32,000 bases of DNA from Vibrio cholerae ATCC 14035 (GCF_000621645.1 NZ_KK211323.1:192517-224516), one strand, 5' to 3'; counted from the stretch's first letter, positions 8,698 through 26,870 are shown. Numbers and translations are program-made. The notes: generated from the sequence alone by a model not told the origin.

Positions 8698-8730
8698 TCA
8701 GTTGATTTACTGATTCGTTGTTTTACTCAT
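8683..8730. repeat. three tandem 16-nt units spanning the cdgK stop and the whole cdgK/dusC intergenic space
   Basis: CAGTTGGTTTACTGAT (8683-8698), CAGTTGATTTACTGAT (8699-8714; 15/16 identical) and TCGTTGTTTTACTCAT (8715-8730; 12/16). Confidence 0.85.
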
Positions 8731-9701
8731 TAGACAGGTAGCTCGGCCGCAGCATGATGGAGTTGATCGCGATAGCGATGTAACTGATCAACGATCGGCT
8801 CGACTTGAGTCAACGTACGTAACTCACCAAACAGCTCATTAGCCTGAGGGTAGGCGTGGCGCAGATAAGCAAACCACTGCTTAATACGGTTTGGGTAGTA
8901 TTTGCCTTTGTCACCACGGACTTCAAATTGCGTGTAGCGCAGCAACAAATCCACCACTTCATGCCAAGGCATGGCGGCGTGATTGTGTTTGACCACATTG
9001 CCTAAATTCGGCACGTTGAGCGCGCCGCGGCACACCATGAGTGAATCGACACCTGTGGTTTGGATGCAAGCTTGACCATCGGCGTAATTCCACACTTCAC
9101 CGTTAGCAATCAATGGAATACTGCATTTTTGGCGGATCTGGTCAATGTAATGCCATTTGATTTCGCTGGCCTTGTAGCCTCCGGCTTTGGTGCGCGCGTG
9201 CACAGTGAGCTCATCGGCTTTAGCTTACGCAACGGCATCGACAATCTCAAAACAATCTTCCGGATCTTCCCAACCTAAGCGGATTTTCGCCGAAACAGGA
9301 ATGTGCGCCGGTACTGCGTCACGACACGCTTTGACCACCTGATAAATCAACTCGGGATGCTGCAAAAGAGCCGCGCCACCTTTGCTCTGATTGACCATTT
9401 TGGCAGGGCAGCCGAAATTTAGATCGATGCCATAAGCCCCAAGCTCAGCAGCGCGGATCGCGTTTTCGGCCATCCAGTGTGGGTCTTGGCCAAGCAGTTG
9501 TACTTTTACCGGAACACCGGACGGAGTTTTAGAACCGTGCCGTAATTCAGGACAGAGGCGATAAAACACATGATCAGGCAGCAGCAGATTCACTACGCGC
9601 ACAAATTCGGTGACGCAGAAGTCGTAGTCATTGATTTGTGTCAGCATGTCACGCATCAAATGATCTAACACGCCCTCCATCGGGCCTAAAATAACTCGCA
9701 T
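8730..9701 (-). pseudogene. dusC: tRNA-dihydrouridine(16) synthase DusC interrupted by one in-frame TAA
   Basis: Track ORFs 9225-9701 and 8730-9203 are in the same frame and together are colinear with E. coli DusC ([13 protein letters not shown]..., ...[25 protein letters not shown]...). The stop (plus-strand TTA, 9225-9227) aligns with Gln in E. coli ([17 protein letters not shown]), which is consistent with a CAA to TAA change. Confidence 0.85.
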
Positions 9702-20556: not shown

Positions 20557-20584
20557 AACCAGCCTTCGGGCTGGTTTTGTTTAT
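20557..20584 (+). terminator. rho-independent terminator of htpX
   Basis: AACCAGCC-ttcg-GGCTGGTT, followed by TTGTTTAT, 9 nt after the htpX stop. Confidence 0.75.
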
Positions 20585-20629: not shown

Positions 20630-20656
20630 TGATCCCTTACATTCTGAGTTTCGTAA
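20630..20656 (+). promoter_or_regulatory. candidate ECF (sigma-E/ChrR group) promoter for the downstream 8-gene operon
   Basis: TGATCC (20630-20635), a 16-nt spacer, then CGTAAC (20652-20657). The TGATCC -35 and CGTA(AGA)-type -10 are, as I recall them, the hallmark of Rhodobacter sigma-E-type (ChrR-partnered) ECF promoters. It lies about 100 nt upstream of the first gene. Confidence 0.5.
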
Positions 20657-20668
20657 CATGAAGTATAA

Positions 20669-20696
20669 AGTTGTACAGAAAAAATCTTGTACAACT
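20669..20696. promoter_or_regulatory. 9-bp perfect inverted repeat with a TGTACA core in the operon leader (candidate operator)
   Basis: AGTTGTACA (20669-20677), a 10-nt spacer, then TGTACAACT (20688-20696). Further TTGTAA and TTGTATAAC copies occur at 20715-20720 and 20742-20750. The right arm overlaps a possible sigma-70 -35 (TTGTAC, with TATGGT 17 nt downstream). Confidence 0.45.
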
Positions 20697-20757
20697 TTAC
20701 AAACTCAACTATGGTTGTAATGCATTATACGAATCTTAAATTTGTATAACTTTAGGG

Positions 20758-21186
20758 ATGAGCATTATGGACGTACAACACGTCGCGCAGTTTTATCAAC
20801 AATTAGATAAAAGCCAATTACATAGGCTGATTGAAATCTATCATCCTGATGTGGTGTTTGAAGATGCCGCACATCGCATCGAAGGGTTTGACGCCCTTTA
20901 CCAGTATTTTTTGAATCTTTACCAAAACGTCCATACCTGTACTTTTACCATTCATGAGCAGTATGCGGTCAATGAGGGCGCGTTTTTGGTCTGGACCATG
21001 CATTTACGTCACCCAAAATTAGCCAAGGGCGAACAGGTGGATGTGAAAGGCGTGAGCCACTTGCACTTTGCCGAGGGCAAAGTGACCTACCATCGCGATT
21101 ATTTCGATATGGGGGAAATGCTTTATGAGCAATTGCCTGTGCTTGGGCAAGTTATCCGCGCGATTAAGCGGAGACTAGGACAATGA
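20758..21186 (+). CDS. NTF2/SnoaL-like small protein
   Basis: 142 aa. An alternative ATG at 20767 has better spacing to AGGGA. FYQQLDKSQLHRLIEIYHPDVVFEDAAHRIEGFDALYQYF is the typical SnoaL_2-type N-terminus. Its stop overlaps the next start (ATGA). Confidence 0.78.
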   Translation: MSIMDVQHVAQFYQQLDKSQLHRLIEIYHPDVVFEDAAHRIEGFDALYQYFLNLYQNVHTCTFTIHEQYAVNEGAFLVWTMHLRHPKLAKGEQVDVKGVSHLHFAEGKVTYHRDYFDMGEMLYEQLPVLGQVIRAIKRRLGQ

Positions 21187-21908
21187 CCGCGGTGTTCATT
21201 ACCGGTGCGACCTCCGGAATTGGTAAACAACTGGCGTTGGATTATGCCAAACAGGGTTGGCAAGTGATTGCGTGTGGACGTAATCAGTCGGTGTTAGACA
21301 GCTTACATACACAATATGCCAACATTTTTCCCTTGGCGTTTGATGTCACCGATCATCCCGGTACAAAAGCGGCATTAGCGCAGCTTCCATGTCAGCCGGA
21401 ACTCTGGATTTTAAATGCAGGCGATTGTGAGTACATCGACGATGGCAAGATGGATGTCACACTGATGGCACGTGTGTTCAATATCAATGTGCTTGGCGTA
21501 GCGGCGGTGATTGAAGGTATACAGCCACATTTGTCCTGTGGTCACCGTGTGGCGATTGTTGGCTCGATTGCCAGTGAGCTGGCCTTGCCGCGAGCAGAAG
21601 CTTATGGCGCTTCCAAAGCGGCCGTCGCTTATTTAGCACGAACGCTTCAACTCGATTGGCGTCCACTTGGTATCGAAGTCACCACCATTTTTCCGGGCTT
21701 TGTCGCCACACCACTCACGGATCGCAATACTTTTGCCATGCCCATGATCATCACAGTAGAGCGTGCCGCCCAGGAGATCAAAGCTGGCTTGGCGCGCGGT
21801 GTGTCACAACTCTATTTCCCTAAACGATTTACTTGGCTGATTCGGTTACTCGGTGCTTTGCCTTATGCATGGCAAGGTCGCTTAGTTCGACGTCTGTTGA
21901 AGGCTTAA
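21183..21908 (+). CDS. short-chain dehydrogenase/reductase
   Basis: Cofactor motif TGATSGIGKQLA and the catalytic YGASKAA (YxxxK). 241 aa. Confidence 0.9.
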   Translation: MTAVFITGATSGIGKQLALDYAKQGWQVIACGRNQSVLDSLHTQYANIFPLAFDVTDHPGTKAALAQLPCQPELWILNAGDCEYIDDGKMDVTLMARVFNINVLGVAAVIEGIQPHLSCGHRVAIVGSIASELALPRAEAYGASKAAVAYLARTLQLDWRPLGIEVTTIFPGFVATPLTDRNTFAMPMIITVERAAQEIKAGLARGVSQLYFPKRFTWLIRLLGALPYAWQGRLVRRLLKA

Positions 21909-21921
21909 TAAGGATTTTTTG

Positions 21922-23199
21922 ATGAAAATTGCAATCATTGGCTCGGGCATTTCAGGTTTAACCTGTGGTTACTATCTGCACCGTTATCACGATATCACCC
22001 TATTCGAAGCCAATGACTACATTGGTGGGCACACTGCGACGGTGGATGTTGAGCTTGCGGGTAAGCCGTACGCAGTGGATACGGGCTTTATCGTTTATAA
22101 CGACAGAACCTATCCCAATTTCATCAAAATGATGGATGAGATTGGCGTGCAAGGTAAACCGACGCAGATGAGCTTCAGTGTGCGTAATGATGCTAACGGT
22201 TTGGAGTACAACGGGCATACCCTGACGACCTTATTCGCTCAAAAACGTAACTGGCTGAATCCAAAGTTTTATCGTTTTATCGCGGAGATTTTACGCTTTA
22301 ACCGTTTAACGAAAGCGTGCGTCGATAATCAATTGGCGAATGAGCAAACCTTAGGTGATTTTCTGGCTCAGCATCAGTTTTCTGAATACTTCTGTGAAAA
22401 CTACATTCTACCCATGGGGGCGGCGATTTGGTCTTCCTCTCTGGCGGATATGCGAGCTTTCCCTCTGATGTTTTTCGCGCGCTTTTTCCTAAACCATGGC
22501 CTACTGGATGTCACCAATCGTCCACAGTGGTATGTGATCCCCGGCGGTTCGCGCAGTTATATTGCGCCTTTAACCCAAGGATTTGGCGATCGCATCCGCC
22601 TCAATAGCGCGGTCACTCAAGTGAAGCGTTTACCAAGTGGGGTAGAGGTTGTGGTCAATGGTCGGAGTGAGCGTTTTGATGAGGTGATTTTTGCTTGCCA
22701 TAGCGACCAAGCTCTTGCCATGCTCAGTGATGCAAGTTCCACCGAACAACAACTGCTGTCTGCACTCGCTTATCAGGCGAATGAAGTGGTGCTCCATACG
22801 GATACTCGTCTGCTGCCCAAACGTAAAGCGGCTTGGGCGGCTTGGAATTACTGGTTGAAAGGTGAAGCCAATCAAGAAACGCGTTTGCCATCTTTGACCT
22901 ACAACATGAATATTTTGCAGCATATTGAAGCGCCTGAGACGTTCTGCGTCACACTCAATAGTAGTGAGGACATTGATCCGAGCAAGATACTGCGCCGATT
23001 TACCTATCATCACCCGGTGTTTTCTCGTCCTGCGATTGAAGCGCAGCAGAAAAAAGCGCAGATCAGCGGTGTCAACCATACTTGGTTTTGTGGCGCATAC
23101 TGGCATAACGGCTTTCATGAGGATGGGGTACGCAGTGCGCTGGATGTGGTGACCCAATTGGAAGCTTACGCACAGCGCAGTGAGCAAGGAGCGGCCTAA
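21922..23199 (+). CDS. NAD/FAD-binding oxidoreductase (amine-oxidase / phytoene-desaturase-like, COG2907 type)
   Basis: ATG 21922 lies 7 nt after AAGGA. MKIAIIGSGISGLTCGYYL...FEANDYIGGH is a Rossmann GxGxxG dinucleotide fold. About 425 aa. Confidence 0.9.
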   Translation: MKIAIIGSGISGLTCGYYLHRYHDITLFEANDYIGGHTATVDVELAGKPYAVDTGFIVYNDRTYPNFIKMMDEIGVQGKPTQMSFSVRNDANGLEYNGHTLTTLFAQKRNWLNPKFYRFIAEILRFNRLTKACVDNQLANEQTLGDFLAQHQFSEYFCENYILPMGAAIWSSSLADMRAFPLMFFARFFLNHGLLDVTNRPQWYVIPGGSRSYIAPLTQGFGDRIRLNSAVTQVKRLPSGVEVVVNGRSERFDEVIFACHSDQALAMLSDASSTEQQLLSALAYQANEVVLHTDTRLLPKRKAAWAAWNYWLKGEANQETRLPSLTYNMNILQHIEAPETFCVTLNSSEDIDPSKILRRFTYHHPVFSRPAIEAQQKKAQISGVNHTWFCGAYWHNGFHEDGVRSALDVVTQLEAYAQRSEQGAA

Positions 23200-24008
23200 T
23201 GCCTGTGCCCCAAGATAGCACCGAGTGGCAAAGTTGTTTGATGGTTGGACAAGTCAGACATCGACGTTTTACGCCGGTCGAGCACGCACTCAACTATCCG
23301 CTGTTTATGCCTTGTATTGATTTAGATGAATGGCCACAGTTGGCGGATAAAGTGTGGGGATTGGGTGAGCGTTGGTGGCATTGGGCGCGTTTTCGCCGTG
23401 AAGATTACCTCGGGCAAGGCCCGCTCAAACAAGCAGTACTTGATAAGATCGAGCAACTGACGGGAGAGCGAATAGAAGGCGGCAGAGTGGTGGCTTTGCT
23501 GCACCTGCGCTATCTCGGAATCTATTTTAGCCCAGTCAACTTTTACTACGTCTATGATAGCGAAAAGCGTTGGCGTTATTTGTTGGCTGAAGTCAGCAAT
23601 ACCCCGTGGAATGAGCGCCACTACTATGCGGTTCCAGCACAAGCAGCATTAACCTCAGAAGAGGCTGCCGTGATTGAATGGCAGCATGCGAAAGCGTTTC
23701 ATGTTTCGCCATTCAATCCCATCGAACAGAGATACTGCTGGAAAATTAAACCCTTAACTCGCGCGCTGATGATCCATCTTGAGTGTCATCGTAGTAATAA
23801 AGAGTTTGATGCTACCTTAGCGATGCAGGCTGAACCCTTGAGCGCAAGCAATTTATTACCTCGATTGATCAAAACGCCGATCATGGCAGTAAAAGTGGTA
23901 TTGGGCATTTATTGGCACGCTTTCAAATTGTGGCGCAAAGGTGCCCCGTTTTATGCGCACCCAGACCAAACTCAGAACAATAATAAGGAGCAACCTCATG
24001 TTAAATAG
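23199..24008 (+). CDS. DUF1365-family protein
   Basis: The start overlaps the previous stop (TAATG). GQVRHRRFTPVEHALNYPLFMPCIDLDE is the characteristic DUF1365 N-terminal signature. 269 aa. Confidence 0.85.
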   Translation: MPVPQDSTEWQSCLMVGQVRHRRFTPVEHALNYPLFMPCIDLDEWPQLADKVWGLGERWWHWARFRREDYLGQGPLKQAVLDKIEQLTGERIEGGRVVALLHLRYLGIYFSPVNFYYVYDSEKRWRYLLAEVSNTPWNERHYYAVPAQAALTSEEAAVIEWQHAKAFHVSPFNPIEQRYCWKIKPLTRALMIHLECHRSNKEFDATLAMQAEPLSASNLLPRLIKTPIMAVKVVLGIYWHAFKLWRKGAPFYAHPDQTQNNNKEQPHVK

Positions 24009-25239
24009 CTCGTCGATGGAAATATCCCGCTCTCTCACCAGTTGGCAGAAAGGTGCCCGCAGTATTATTCACCGTGCATTACAGTATCTCGAAGGCAATT
24101 TAACAGTGATAGAACATTTCCCCGATCAAACCCAAACCACGCATGAACAATTTGGCCAAGATAAGCCCGATGCCATTCATGCCGTGATTGAAATTAAACA
24201 CCCGGATTTTTACAGCCGAGTATTGAAGGGCGGGAGTATTGCTGCCGCAGAAGCTTACATGGAAGGGTGGTGGGAAAGCCCTAATCTGACGGCCTTGATG
24301 CAGTTGATGGCTGCCAACCTCGGTACGCTGGATAAGCTAGAAAGTCAAAGTAGTCCTGTGACTCAATGGTTAAACCGTTTCACTCACTGGCTCAAACGCA
24401 ACACCATAGATCAAGCCAAAGATAATATTCACCAGCACTATGATTTGGGGAATGAGCTTTATCAACTGTTCCTCGATGAAGAGATGCTTTACTCCAGCGC
24501 GCTGTTTACCCAACCTGAGCTCTCACTAGAGCAGGCGCAGCAAGCCAAAATGCAGCGTTTGTGTGAGCAACTACAACTGAAACCGACCGATCACGTGTTA
24601 GAAATTGGTACGGGGTGGGGCGCGATGGCGATTTACATGGCGCAGCACTATGGCTGTAAGGTCACCACCACCACCATTTCGGAAGAGCAGTATGCTTACG
24701 CACAGCAAAAAATTACGGCACTTGGGCTAAATAACCAAATTACCCTGCTCAAACAAGATTACCGTTTGCTGAGCGGTCAGTATGACAAGTTGGTATCGAT
24801 TGAAATGATTGAAGCGGTGGGTAAGGCCTACTTGCCGACGTTTTTGAGCCAATGTTATGCGTTACTGAAGCCGCGCGGCAAAATGGCGATTCAGGCAATC
24901 ACCATTGCCGATCAGCGTTATGAAAGCTACAGCAATAACGTGGACTTTATTCAGAAATACATTTTCCCCGGCGGTTTTTTGCCTTCGATCAGTGTGTTGA
25001 CCGAATTAGCCACCAAACGAACTGGGTTGGTGTTGCGTAACTTGCATGACATCGGCATAGATTACGCACTGACGTTGCAACACTGGCGTGACCGATTTGA
25101 GCAGCAATTGCCGAAAGTACGTGATCTTGGGTATGACGAACGTTTCATCCGTATGTGGCGTTATTACTTTTGTTACTGCGAAGGTGGCTTTTTAGCCCGT
25201 AGCATCAGTACCGTGCACATGACTTTTGAACGAGATTAA
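23998..25239 (+). CDS. cyclopropane-fatty-acyl-phospholipid-synthase-like SAM-dependent methyltransferase
   Basis: ATG 23998 lies 7 nt after AAGGAG. The track extension back to 23941 lies inside the previous gene. HYDLGNELYQLFLD, the SAM motif VLEIGTGWGAMAIYMAQHYGCKVTTTTIS, and IFPGGFLPS are present. It is colinear with Cfa and has an N-terminal extension. Confidence 0.9.
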   Translation: MLNSSSMEISRSLTSWQKGARSIIHRALQYLEGNLTVIEHFPDQTQTTHEQFGQDKPDAIHAVIEIKHPDFYSRVLKGGSIAAAEAYMEGWWESPNLTALMQLMAANLGTLDKLESQSSPVTQWLNRFTHWLKRNTIDQAKDNIHQHYDLGNELYQLFLDEEMLYSSALFTQPELSLEQAQQAKMQRLCEQLQLKPTDHVLEIGTGWGAMAIYMAQHYGCKVTTTTISEEQYAYAQQKITALGLNNQITLLKQDYRLLSGQYDKLVSIEMIEAVGKAYLPTFLSQCYALLKPRGKMAIQAITIADQRYESYSNNVDFIQKYIFPGGFLPSISVLTELATKRTGLVLRNLHDIGIDYALTLQHWRDRFEQQLPKVRDLGYDERFIRMWRYYFCYCEGGFLARSISTVHMTFERD

Positions 25240-25241
25240 TC

Positions 25242-25781
25242 ATGGCGTTAGTGGCGATATCATTATGGTTTGACCTGCTCTGGGCACTGGCTGTCTTGGG
25301 GCAGCAAACCTGGTTATGGCTCACCACATTACTGGTGGTTGCCACCTATGGCTTAACGGCAATCCAGCGCCATCCGCTGTTTGAAAAAATGGTTTGGATG
25401 GCGGTGGTTGGCATCATGATAGACAGCAGCAATATGCTGCTTGGGTTACTCACCTTTGCCGACGATCAATTTCCACTTTGGTTGGTGGCACTCTGGTTTG
25501 CGTTTACTTGGTATGCAGGCCACTTACTGCCGCAGCTTAACCAATATTCCCATACTCTTCTGTGTCTCGCCGGAGGCGTTTTGGGAAGTTTAAGTTATTG
25601 GTTTGGTTACCGAATGGGCGCGGTTGGTTGGGAATACCCCACCTTTATCGTCATGTTGGCACTGTTTTTGGAATGGATAGGTATCACTTGGTTACTGTTG
25701 AAGGTAATGAGGCATGAAAAAAGGACTTATAACCCTATTCGTTTTGCTCGCGAGCGGACTTGGTTACGCCGCCGTCGCTAA
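25242..25781 (+). CDS. DUF2878-family integral membrane protein
   Basis: 179 aa, starting 2 nt after the methyltransferase stop. It has 4-5 hydrophobic, Trp-rich helices. The last 68 nt overlap the next gene. Confidence 0.7.
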   Translation: MALVAISLWFDLLWALAVLGQQTWLWLTTLLVVATYGLTAIQRHPLFEKMVWMAVVGIMIDSSNMLLGLLTFADDQFPLWLVALWFAFTWYAGHLLPQLNQYSHTLLCLAGGVLGSLSYWFGYRMGAVGWEYPTFIVMLALFLEWIGITWLLLKVMRHEKRTYNPIRFARERTWLRRRR

Positions 25782-26280
25782 TGCGGCGCAAGCGGAGCAT
25801 AAAACTTTCCAGCGATGGGCAGAATGGCCAGTTGTTGGGCAGGCCACCCTTTCATGGCTGTGGCTGGATATCTACTCCTCGCAGTTGCGAGCGCCTGATG
25901 GCCTGTATCATGAGTCGCAAGATGTCTCGCCACATCCTGTTGCTCTTGAGATCCGTTATTTGCGCGATATCAGCAGTAAACAGTTGGTGGATGCTACTGA
26001 GGATCAGTGGCGAAAACTGGGATTCACCGCACCGCAAACCCAAGCGTGGTTGAAGCAACTGCAGCAAATACTGCCGGATGTCGCGACGGGAGATCGCCTA
26101 GTGTATGTCTCTGATGGGCAGCGCGGAGAGTTTTTCTTTAGTCGCCAACAACAGACGGAACGTTCGGTAGGCCGCATTGATGATGAAGCGTTTAATGATG
26201 CTTTTCTCTCCATTTGGCTGTCGCCGCAAACGGAATATTTAACCTTGCGTAATCAATTGATAGGAATGAATCGACCATGA
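25714..26280 (+). CDS. secreted chalcone-isomerase-fold (Chalcone_3-like) protein
   Basis: RBS TGAGG. Signal peptide MKKGLITLFVLLASGLGYAAVANA. The pattern WLWLDIYSSQL...ALEIRYLRDI...GDRLVY...FNDAFLSIWLSP...LRNQLIGM fits bacterial CHI-like proteins. Confidence 0.72.
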   Translation: MKKGLITLFVLLASGLGYAAVANAAQAEHKTFQRWAEWPVVGQATLSWLWLDIYSSQLRAPDGLYHESQDVSPHPVALEIRYLRDISSKQLVDATEDQWRKLGFTAPQTQAWLKQLQQILPDVATGDRLVYVSDGQRGEFFFSRQQQTERSVGRIDDEAFNDAFLSIWLSPQTEYLTLRNQLIGMNRP

Positions 26281-26804
26281 GATTGGCTAAATGTTGGCTA
26301 TTACTGCTCTGTATCTGGCTTAGTGGATGTTCGGCAGAGATTGATGATTATCGTGCGACGACGCCTAAGTTTGATCTCTTCAATTACTTTGTCGGAACGA
26401 CACATGCGTGGGGTATGGTGCAAGACTATACCGAGAAGCAGACGCGCCGTTTTGAGGTGGTAATTGAAGGTCGGATTGAGAATAACCAACTGATTTTAGT
26501 CGAAGACTTCGTGTTTGATGATGGGGAAAAGGATCAACGGATCTGGACGATTAACCGAACGGCTGATGATGCGTACGAAGGACGAGCGGATGACATTGTT
26601 GGAACGGCTCGCGGTAAAGAAGTGGGTAATGCACTGCAGTGGCAATACGATTTTGTGTTGAAACTCGACAGCGGCGATGTGCAAGTACACTTCGATGACT
26701 GGCTGTATCGACAAGATGACAAGCGGGTATTTAATTTAACCAAAATTCGCAAATTTGGTCTTGAAGTCGGTCGGATTACTCTGTTTTTTGAAAAGCAGGA
26801 GTGA
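26277..26804 (+). CDS. DUF3833-family lipoprotein (lipocalin-like)
   Basis: ATGA overlap with the previous stop. Lipobox LLLLCIWLSGC. PKFDLFNYFVGTTHAWGMVQD...RRFEVVIEG...DDGEKDQRIW...VHFDDWLY...FGLEVGRITLFFEK matches my recollection of DUF3833. Confidence 0.72.
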   Translation: MRLAKCWLLLLCIWLSGCSAEIDDYRATTPKFDLFNYFVGTTHAWGMVQDYTEKQTRRFEVVIEGRIENNQLILVEDFVFDDGEKDQRIWTINRTADDAYEGRADDIVGTARGKEVGNALQWQYDFVLKLDSGDVQVHFDDWLYRQDDKRVFNLTKIRKFGLEVGRITLFFEKQE

Positions 26805-26846
26805 AACGGTCTGGTATAAACCAAGTCGATAAGTCGTCGATAAGTA

Positions 26847-26870
26847 AAAGGGGAGCCGTTGCTCCCCTTA
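26847..26870. terminator. terminator hairpin shared by the 8-gene operon and purB (stronger in the purB direction)
   Basis: AAAA-GGGGAGC-cgtt-GCTCCCC-TTA. On the minus strand the stem is followed by TTTT. Confidence 0.7.

Follow-up and report, generated by a model that had tools for sequence, protein, structure and literature searches.

A photo-oxidative-stress lipid module predicted at VC1118-VC1125 of Vibrio cholerae

Introduction

Eight closely packed genes of one strand, VC1118 to VC1125, occupy positions 20758 to 26804 of a 32,000-nucleotide stretch of Vibrio cholerae ATCC 14035 (NZ_KK211323.1:192517-224516), which is called the window throughout. They raise a question with two parts, namely what lipid these enzymes and their companions make together, and whether all eight genes form one unit. 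A reading made from the bare DNA (the sequence-only reading) had proposed a single operon with a complete route to a furan fatty acid (FuFA). We find it somewhat better than an even bet that VC1118-VC1125 is a photo-oxidative-stress lipid module, predicted from its sequence to make the methylated furan fatty acid 9M5-FuFA.

This interpretation points in the right direction and is mostly a rediscovery, because the locus already comes within published work on the conserved core regulon of sigma-E, on FuFA synthesis, on the light-responsive LitR regulon of Pseudomonas and on the blue-light transcriptome of V. cholerae. The addition to a regulation that is otherwise largely published is a likely MerR-type operator, the palindrome at 20672-20693, which was located in this analysis. 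The chemistry is the part that goes beyond the published regulatory story. If furan fatty acids are indeed made in the light, this would show membrane protection of a non-phototrophic pathogen in its aquatic phase. The annotations of VC1122 as "cfa" and of VC1118 as "transcriptional regulator" would then need correcting, and V. cholerae would become a genetically easy host for the NTF2-like, short-chain dehydrogenase/reductase (SDR), DUF2878, chalcone-isomerase-like (CHI-like) and DUF3833 companions of the FuFA enzymes.

The eight genes

The block is VC1118-VC1125 of V. cholerae chromosome 1. The published VC1118 sigma-E motif and the VC1118 quantitative PCR primer (Tardu et al. 2017) both occur verbatim in the window, and the VC1125 protein is 98% identical to V. 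cholerae proteins. Pfam profile searches agree with the earlier family call for every one of the eight proteins.

20758..21186, + strand: VC1118, cytoplasmic NTF2/SnoaL-like protein of 142 aa (SnoaL_2 1.6e-19, SnoaL 2.4e-10, weak LEH)
21183..21908, + strand: VC1119, SDR of 241 aa (adh_short 6e-32; NF004765 equivalog 482.8 bits against a cut-off of 406, 1e-145)
21922..23199, + strand: VC1120, FAD-dependent amine-oxidase-fold oxidoreductase, UfaD-like (Amino_oxidase 1e-22, NAD_binding_8)
23199..24008, + strand: VC1121, DUF1365 protein, UfaO-like (DUF1365, PF07103, 4.6e-78, full domain)
23998..25239, + strand: VC1122, CMAS-family S-adenosylmethionine (SAM) methyltransferase, UfaM-like, annotated cfa (CMAS 1.2e-83)
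25242..25781, + strand: VC1123, DUF2878 polytopic inner-membrane protein of 179 aa (DUF2878 1.2e-32), the last strongly light-induced gene
25714..26280, + strand: VC1124, exported chalcone-isomerase-like protein (Chalcone_3 8.5e-9; Sec signal peptide ...AVANA/AQ read in the translation)
26277..26804, + strand: VC1125, DUF3833 lipoprotein (DUF3833 1.8e-64; lipobox LSGC)

The core enzymes and the furan route

Synthesis of 9M5-FuFA is known from R. sphaeroides and R. palustris, where the SAM methylase UfaM converts cis-vaccenate in phospholipids into 11Me-12t-18:1. UfaD (RSP1091) then turns 11Me-12t-18:1 into the diene, and UfaO (RSP1090), which uses O2, forms 9M5-FuFA; the three together are sufficient for the product, as shown in two alphaproteobacteria. 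The statement in the sequence-only reading that UfaO is a DUF1365 protein proved correct for RSP1090.

VC1120 is predicted to be the desaturase that takes 11Me-12t-18:1 to 11Me-10t,12t-18:2. It is 39% identical over 408 aa (E 2e-93) to the positional orthologue in ChrR-linked Rhodobacterales clusters, and its nearest solved structure is LkcE (3e-50). As befits a UfaD, this FAD amine-oxidase-fold enzyme is encoded directly upstream of the DUF1365 gene, and the two genes are adjacent in all 80 related loci. These loci, the closest to Vibrio, come from a genome scan with a DUF1365 alignment, and the window proteins were searched in them by tblastn.

VC1121, encoded beside the putative desaturase, is the predicted O2-dependent furan-ring-forming enzyme and keeps the residues that mark its family: H21, R23, E131, K165 and V169-P171 are invariant across classes, and N134, T135, H168 and F172 nearly so. 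Its identity to the ChrR-linked Rhodobacterales orthologue is 29% (E 7e-19). A protein search from the Rhodobacterales DUF1365 seed returned other Rhodobacterales alone, none named Cereibacter. The AlphaFold2 model of VC1121 is of good quality by its own scores (pLDDT 87, pTM 0.85). Foldseek found no significant neighbour for it among solved structures (best E 0.03, TM <0.3), and a sequence and profile search of the PDB with DUF1365 gave no significant match. This oxygenase family seems to have a fold that has yet to be characterised by structure.

VC1122 is predicted to be the 11-methylase of cis-vaccenate on phospholipid acyl chains. It resembles E. coli Cfa in its two-domain architecture and in the SAM-dependent attack on a phospholipid cis double bond, with 38% identity over nearly the full length (E 4.6e-64). 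However, it scores 291.6 bits against the Cfa equivalog NF008686, whose cut-off is 400, and also falls under the cut-offs of NF053839 and NF040703 (the CfaB and Brucella models). At the positions of C139, E239, H266, I268 and Y317, which we take to be the bicarbonate ligands of E. coli Cfa, VC1122 has S, E, Q, I and Y. Of the DUF1365-linked methylases, 21 of 21 share this Q at position 266; Cfa and a second methylase clade retain H. VC1122 thus lacks both marks of a canonical Cfa, the equivalog score and the intact set of five residues, and the score under the cut-off and the Q for H266 are the reasons why we do not regard it as one. A neighbour-joining tree places VC1122 with all DUF1365-linked methylases (from alpha-, beta- and gammaproteobacteria and actinobacteria), apart from E. 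coli Cfa. A further difference from Cfa is the obligate linkage of VC1122 to DUF1365 and FAD-enzyme genes. The published label of VC1122 as a cyclopropane synthase looks misleading, given that the protein does not reach the Cfa equivalog cut-off.

A second, shorter CMAS-type methylase of 345-366 aa is present in Acinetobacter, Ensifer, Ralstonia and several metagenome-assembled genomes (L003 9784-10833, L006 4423-5460, L008 9757-10857, L064, L074, L077, L081 and L082). It is 23-26% identical to VC1122, retains H266 and forms its own clade in the tree, apart from the VC1122 group. These second-clade enzymes may be FufM-like methylases for dimethyl furan acids. The window holds no such second methylase.

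Comparison with known clusters

The sequence-only reading held that all three FuFA enzyme families sit in one operon. They do lie side by side here, an arrangement that fits R. palustris and Halomonas but not R. sphaeroides, where UfaM (RSP2144) is encoded outside the operon and the operon's own methylase, RSP1089, is not required. Compared by gene order, R. palustris RPA2571-RPA2568 and Halomonas sp. YLGW01 have adjacent ufaD, ufaO and ufaM in the same order as the window. The in-cluster methylase of each is an experimentally shown UfaM, and that of Halomonas yields 11-methyloctadec-12-enoate in E. coli. Relative to these clusters, the window has further genes on both sides of the three, NTF2-like and SDR ahead of them and DUF2878, CHI-like and DUF3833 behind.

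R. sphaeroides RSP1091-RSP1087 begins with the UfaD- and UfaO-like genes and continues with genes for a CMAS paralogue, a lipoprotein and an SDR. Together with RSP2143-RSP2144, this operon has a sigma-E promoter, singlet-oxygen induction and a photolyase in the same regulon. It is divergent from rpoE-chrR, whereas the V. cholerae regulators are encoded apart from the block, at VC2301-VC2302 (sigma-E/ChrR) and VCA0056 (MerR-like). No NTF2, DUF2878 or CHI-like gene is reported for the R. sphaeroides operon, and V. cholerae adds a MerR-type control layer.

The earlier statement that the lipid product is undemonstrated in Vibrio stands for the furan acid, but the first intermediate, 11-methyl-18:1, is recorded in Vibrio fatty acid methyl ester (FAME) tables. 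V. tritonius contains 7.8% 11-methyl C18:1ω7c, and a peak named "Unknown ECL 20.454" (5.0-5.6%) co-varies with it, being confined to the V. tritonius strains richest in 11-methyl C18:1 (PMC3873509 Table 4); traces of 11-methyl C18:1 are listed for V. fluvialis and V. furnissii. A later product of the pathway, for example the diene or the furan acid, could account for the peak. V. tritonius (L090) carries the identical block, likewise between htpX and purB. In Shewanella species the block is joined to ChrR-sigma and phrB genes, and Shewanella putrefaciens is reported as a producer of a 10,13-epoxy-11-methyl furan acid.

Regulation by light

Three elements lie ahead of VC1118.

20630..20656, + strand: extracytoplasmic function (ECF) sigma promoter of the ChrR/sigma-E type, TGATCC-N16-CGTAA, identical to the published VC1118 motif
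20667..20698, unstranded: perfect 11-bp inverted repeat AAAGTTGTACA-N10-TGTACAACTTT, candidate operator of VCA0056 (MerR-family repressor of the LitR/PhrR type)
20726..20748, unstranded: second, weaker LitR-like site TATACG-N11-TGTATA, directly upstream of the ribosome-binding site, forming a second hairpin

The published motif for VC1118 is given as "TGATC CCTTACATTCTGAGTTT CGTAA" at -102 (Tardu et al. 2017, Supplementary Table S8). No other copy of the exact pattern occurs in the window, a transcription start is predicted near 20662-20665, and TGATC-N15-19-CGTA precedes the first gene in 9 of 11 loci of the genus Vibrio. Both features of the core ChrR/sigma-E regulon are found here, a TGATC-N16-18-CGTA promoter and ChrR-dependent induction, the latter in published RNA sequencing (RNA-seq).

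The core of the inverted repeat, TGTACA-N10-TGTACA at 20672-20693, stands just downstream of the sigma-E -10 element, is unique in the window, where 0.01 would be expected by chance, and has half-sites equal to the class II LitR consensus T(G/A)TACA...TGTA(C/T)A. Equivalent palindromes precede the orthologous first gene in 6 of the 11 Vibrio loci, and the relatives in this genus have a second LitR-like site at -39 to -52; P. mendocina likewise has two LitR sites. LitR half-sites have been footprinted in Pseudomonas upstream of the homologous cluster, and VC1123 is cited as a member of the RegPrecise PhrR (MerR-family) regulon. Class II LitR of Pseudomonas is a MerR-family repressor whose palindromes overlap or follow the promoter. 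The pplR1/pmlR1 region there (phrB, SDR, FAD oxidoreductase, "ufaM" and hypothetical proteins) is light-inducible and resembles the window in its enzyme set. The systems differ in the promoter, sigma-70 in Pseudomonas and sigma-E here, and in P. mendocina a LOV-protein anti-repressor has been shown.

The sequence-only reading had linked the block to a reported cfa-type gene induced by blue light in a ChrR- and MerR-dependent manner, and the locus is exactly that V. cholerae unit. Blue light raises VC1118-VC1123 7- to 113-fold in RNA-seq (Tardu et al. 2017), and the induction of VC1118 and VC1122 depends on ChrR and MerR (VCA0056). The published expression columns cover wild type, chrR deletion and chrR merR double deletion, each in dark and light.

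VC1118: wild type 75 dark, 8485 light; chrR deletion 1502 dark, 3706 light; chrR merR double deletion 3947 dark, 4282 light (constitutive)
VC1119: wild type 59 dark, 3071 light
VC1120: wild type 86 dark, 3453 light
VC1121: wild type 63 dark, 1396 light
VC1122: wild type 69 dark, 2127 light
VC1123: wild type 54 dark, 363 light
VC1124: wild type 387 dark, 580 light
VC1125: wild type 1989 dark, 3315 light

VC1118 is the most strongly induced gene of the unit. MerR-dependent de-repression is visible in these data, as is de-repression in the chrR deletion.

In relatives with phrB ahead of the block, the 3' end of the phrB reading frame contains a sigma-E-like TGATCC-N16-17-CGTA string such as TGATCCAAAAGGGGAATTTATCCGTAA, some 170-320 nt before the NTF2-like gene (L002, L005, L020, L024-L027, L029, L031, L039, L041, L048, L050, L060, L063 and L071). 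The string may reflect the conserved peptide D-P-x-G-x-F-I-R, or may double as an internal promoter of the eight-gene block.

Gene layout and conservation of the block

The open reading frame (ORF) list agrees with the eight + strand genes placed earlier at 20758-26804, and recomputation returned all seven junctions as they had been described. VC1118 and VC1119 overlap by ATGA (21183-21186), and VC1119 and VC1120 are separated by a 13-nt gap with AAGGA ahead of the ATG at 21922; the mechanical ORF list starts VC1120 at TTG 21919, 3 nt before this ATG. VC1120 and VC1121 share TAATG (23197-23201), VC1121 and VC1122 overlap by 11 nt (23998-24008), and VC1122 and VC1123 stand 2 nt apart (25240-25241). 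VC1123 and VC1124 overlap by 68 nt (25714-25781), and VC1124 and VC1125 by ATGA (26277-26280). The overlap of the DUF2878 and CHI-like genes is variable in the Vibrio loci L010-L016, at about 11 to 155 nt by heuristic start calls; the Salinivibrio and Pseudoalteromonas pairs either share 4 nt or stand apart.

20557..20584, + strand: intrinsic terminator of htpX (VC1117), hairpin 20557-20576 followed by TTGTTTAT; upstream boundary of the unit
26848..26869, unstranded: GC-rich hairpin between the convergent VC1125 and purB, with a T-run on the minus strand only

Of the two hairpins said to bracket the block, the htpX terminator holds as described. The 3' hairpin exists but lacks a + strand U-tract, and it scores as the terminator of the convergent purB because its T-run is on the minus strand. 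A terminator scan found no + strand terminator inside the eight-gene block.

Tight gene spacing alone is not proof of a single transcript, and published transcript levels qualify the claim of one eight-gene operon. Spacing and conserved order support it, but regulation is not uniform, so that the claim is only partly right: VC1124 and VC1125 behave as a separate unit. The Rockhopper operon call in the published RNA-seq is VC1118-VC1123. Dark expression of VC1124 and VC1125 is 387 and 1989, against 54-86 for the first six genes, their induction is only 1.5-1.7-fold, and according to published work both belong to the FlrBC class III flagellar regulon. Cells without VC1125 retain full motility. 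A sigma-70 scan upstream of VC1124 gave no + strand match.

The eight genes nevertheless belong together despite this split in expression. At least seven of them are on the same strand in 43 of the 80 loci, and the block genes that are present keep the window order in 75. The families are distributed as follows.

FAD enzyme: 80/80 loci
DUF1365: 79/80 loci
Methylase: 78/80 loci
NTF2-like: 59/80 loci, same position
SDR: 59/80 loci
CHI-like: 51/80 loci, same position
DUF3833: 48/80 loci
DUF2878: 36/80 loci, an under-count, the family being weakly conserved

The gene order is common to Vibrionaceae, Enterobacterales, Shewanella, Aeromonas and Pseudoalteromonas, and among the 80 loci, 50 show a regulator or photolyase gene within the flank that was fetched. 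In Salinivibrio, Photobacterium, Grimontia and Aeromonas the genes fused ahead of the block are RudS(DUF523/DUF1722)-MerR-phrB; in Shewanella, Pseudoalteromonas and Motilimonas they are ECF sigma-ChrR-RudS-phrB. These fused supra-operons have the identical eight-gene order, with protein identities of 33-64% (tblastn) for seven of the eight proteins; DUF2878 is annotated in all three records but falls under the tblastn threshold. In the genus Vibrio, unlike the fused supra-operons, the block has no regulator or photolyase genes attached and stands between htpX and purB, with only the cis elements kept. The core triad is also found in Acinetobacter, Legionella, Ralstonia, Ensifer and Streptomyces, with MerR, ChrR, cryptochrome, lipocalin, CHI, DUF2878, DUF1295 and DUF2177 as companions. 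Aeromonas sp. BC14 (L005 9443-9661) has a small TIGR02450 Trp-rich gene between DUF2878 and the CHI-like gene, which the window does not have.

The five partner proteins

The sequence-only reading described the other five proteins as unassigned. This is right as to mechanism, but relatives of two of them have a place in the literature: the SDR RSP1087 and RSP1088, whose best P. syringae match is a lipoprotein, are both counted in the conserved core sigma-E regulon. VC1119 is the family counterpart of RSP1087, and the last gene of a Rhodobacterales operon is a 241-aa SDR. VC1118 is a candidate isomerase, cyclase or hydrolase on a lipid intermediate. Its published label "transcriptional regulator" looks misleading, the protein being NTF2/SnoaL-like with no DNA-binding domain detected.

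Deletion of VC1123 is reported to raise ompU, lower ompT and enhance mouse colonisation; toxRS transcripts remain the same. The corresponding cluster of Aeromonas salmonicida is down-regulated by riboflavin.

The chalcone-isomerase superfamily, to which VC1124 is related, includes plant fatty-acid-binding proteins (FABP). Searches of the PDB by sequence and profile gave no significant match for the CHI-like VC1124, nor for the DUF3833 protein VC1125. The lipobox Cys18 of VC1125 is invariant in 37 homologues, and its AlphaFold model is a 10-stranded FABP/nitrobindin-like beta-barrel (pLDDT 89.8). The closest Foldseek matches to this model include BFA1, FABP-like Ycf58 and nitrobindin, at a TM of about 0.6, and also Rv2717c and the OssO/OlmO spirocyclases. 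These neighbours of the modelled barrel suggest hydrophobic-ligand binding in the periplasm, for which VC1125 is therefore a candidate.

A model of the module and its alternatives

The module would work as follows. ChrR holds sigma-E in the dark, and the VCA0056 repressor presumably occupies the TGTACA palindromes that come directly after the sigma-E promoter. Both controls are released by blue light or reactive oxygen species, whereupon VC1118-VC1123 rise. By homology and gene linkage, VC1122 would methylate cis-vaccenoyl chains in phospholipids to 11Me-12t-18:1, and the flavoenzyme VC1120 would convert this to 11Me-10t,12t-18:2. VC1121 would then insert O2-derived oxygen to give monomethyl 9M5-FuFA, a scavenger of singlet oxygen and radicals. 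No dimethyl product is expected, because the window has no FufM-like second methylase. The weakest steps concern the partners: the NTF2-like protein and the SDR may act on pathway side-products or oxidised FuFA, DUF2878 may be a membrane partner, and the exported CHI-fold protein and VC1125 may bind hydrophobic ligands in the periplasm.

Several observations weigh against this picture. The in-operon methylase of Rhodobacterales, of the RSP1089 type by position, shares the VC1122 clade and its S/Q signature, and the signature therefore marks a clade, not a proven UfaM activity. Deletions of RSP1087, RSP1088 and RSP1089 leave R. sphaeroides fatty acids unchanged; the partners may therefore not act in synthesis at all. 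The operator spacers are N10 (20672-20693) and N11 (20726-20748), against N12 in Pseudomonas. The regulation of VC1124 and VC1125 goes with the flagellar genes and not with light, and a sigma-54 promoter upstream of VC1124, considered as the cause of FlrBC control, was rejected: no match to TGGCAC-N5-TTGCA with up to three mismatches (<=3) occurs in the window, and none is conserved in relatives. The ompU/ompT phenotype of the VC1123 deletion is left unexplained by the model. Our literature search found no V. cholerae fatty-acid analysis under inducing conditions.

It is unlikely, though it deserves serious attention, that the module stops at or diverts to another product, such as a methyl-branched trans-monoene or diene, a 16:1-derived lipid or another oxygenated lipid, for which the NTF2-like protein, the SDR and DUF2878 would be indispensable as catalysts. 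Gammaproteobacteria keep the five partners in strict synteny, alphaproteobacteria lack them or have different ones, and other lineages place DUF1295, lipocalins or desaturases at the same positions. Additionally, the sole recorded Vibrio lipid is 11-methyl-18:1 and not a furan acid, and 16:1 exceeds 18:1 in Vibrio FAME tables. However, the UfaM, UfaD and UfaO homologues alone suffice for 9M5-FuFA in the two alphaproteobacteria, the DUF1365 invariant residues are fully kept in VC1121, and the genus Shewanella, with species that carry the block, includes S. putrefaciens, the reported furan-acid producer.

A signalling role seems rather doubtful. The modified lipid, or its singlet-oxygen adduct, would here be a messenger for ChrR turnover, full sigma-E activation and positive feedback, perhaps with an input to envelope regulators as well. 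In R. sphaeroides, ChrR is broken down rapidly and sigma-E fully induced under singlet oxygen only if RSP2144 and RSP1091 are present, insertion in or deletion of RSP_1090 lowers RpoE activity, and the VC1123 deletion shifts ompU and ompT without a change in toxRS transcripts. Such a role is nevertheless compatible with scavenging, and V. cholerae ChrR senses through Cys33.

The five partners could also be a non-biosynthetic arm for maintenance and trafficking of a sacrificial lipid, in a regenerable, compartment-spanning quenching system, an idea that we consider a long shot. Singlet oxygen would open the furan ring to a reactive dioxo-ene chain, which the SDR and the NTF2/SnoaL-like protein would reduce, re-cyclise or detoxify; DUF2878, the periplasmic CHI-fold protein and VC1125 would move modified or damaged lipid between inner and outer membrane. 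Since the outer membrane of V. cholerae also forms the flagellar sheath, this could explain why VC1124-VC1125 are under FlrBC and why loss of VC1123 has an envelope phenotype (ompU/ompT).

Equally improbable is a division into two unrelated abutting units, a six-gene light operon and a flagellar-regulon pair, VC1124-VC1125, with no lipid role. The discordant expression and FlrBC dependence of the pair speak for it, and the best P. syringae match of RSP_1088 is an unlinked lipoprotein. On the other hand, in 48-51 of the 80 loci, across several bacterial orders, the methylase and DUF2878 genes have the CHI-like and DUF3833 genes behind them as in the window, and this order is also kept in plasmid-borne clusters of beta- and gammaproteobacteria. 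Both proteins have a fold of lipid-binding type, the genes overlap, and loss of VC1125 leaves motility intact.

That VC1122 is an ordinary cyclopropane synthase, as annotated, and that the operon protects membranes by cyclopropanation, as Tardu et al. interpreted it, is very hard to credit: the CMAS domain, the near full-length likeness to Cfa and the cyclic fatty acids still present in the Halomonas UfaM strain (on an E. coli background) favour it, but we reject the canonical Cfa reading on the score under the cut-off and on S139 and Q266, the latter clade-wide, at the presumed ligand positions, and the methylase is obligately linked to DUF1365 and the FAD enzyme.

Other features of the window

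The block has htpX (VC1117) upstream and purB, hflD and mnmA downstream. The rest of the window is of housekeeping character (ackA, an ABC transporter, a GGDEF protein, lolA, rarA, serS and bioABFCD), and no regulator of the block was found elsewhere in it. An Rfam scan of the whole window returned no RNA family, and therefore no riboswitch is placed in the 5' untranslated region. On the minus strand at 8730-9701, a dihydrouridine synthase (Dus) gene is divided by one in-frame stop (...VDAVA*AKADEL...) into ORFs 9225-9701 and 8730-9203, each of which matches one half of the Dus profile, as in a pseudogene or a strain-specific nonsense mutation.

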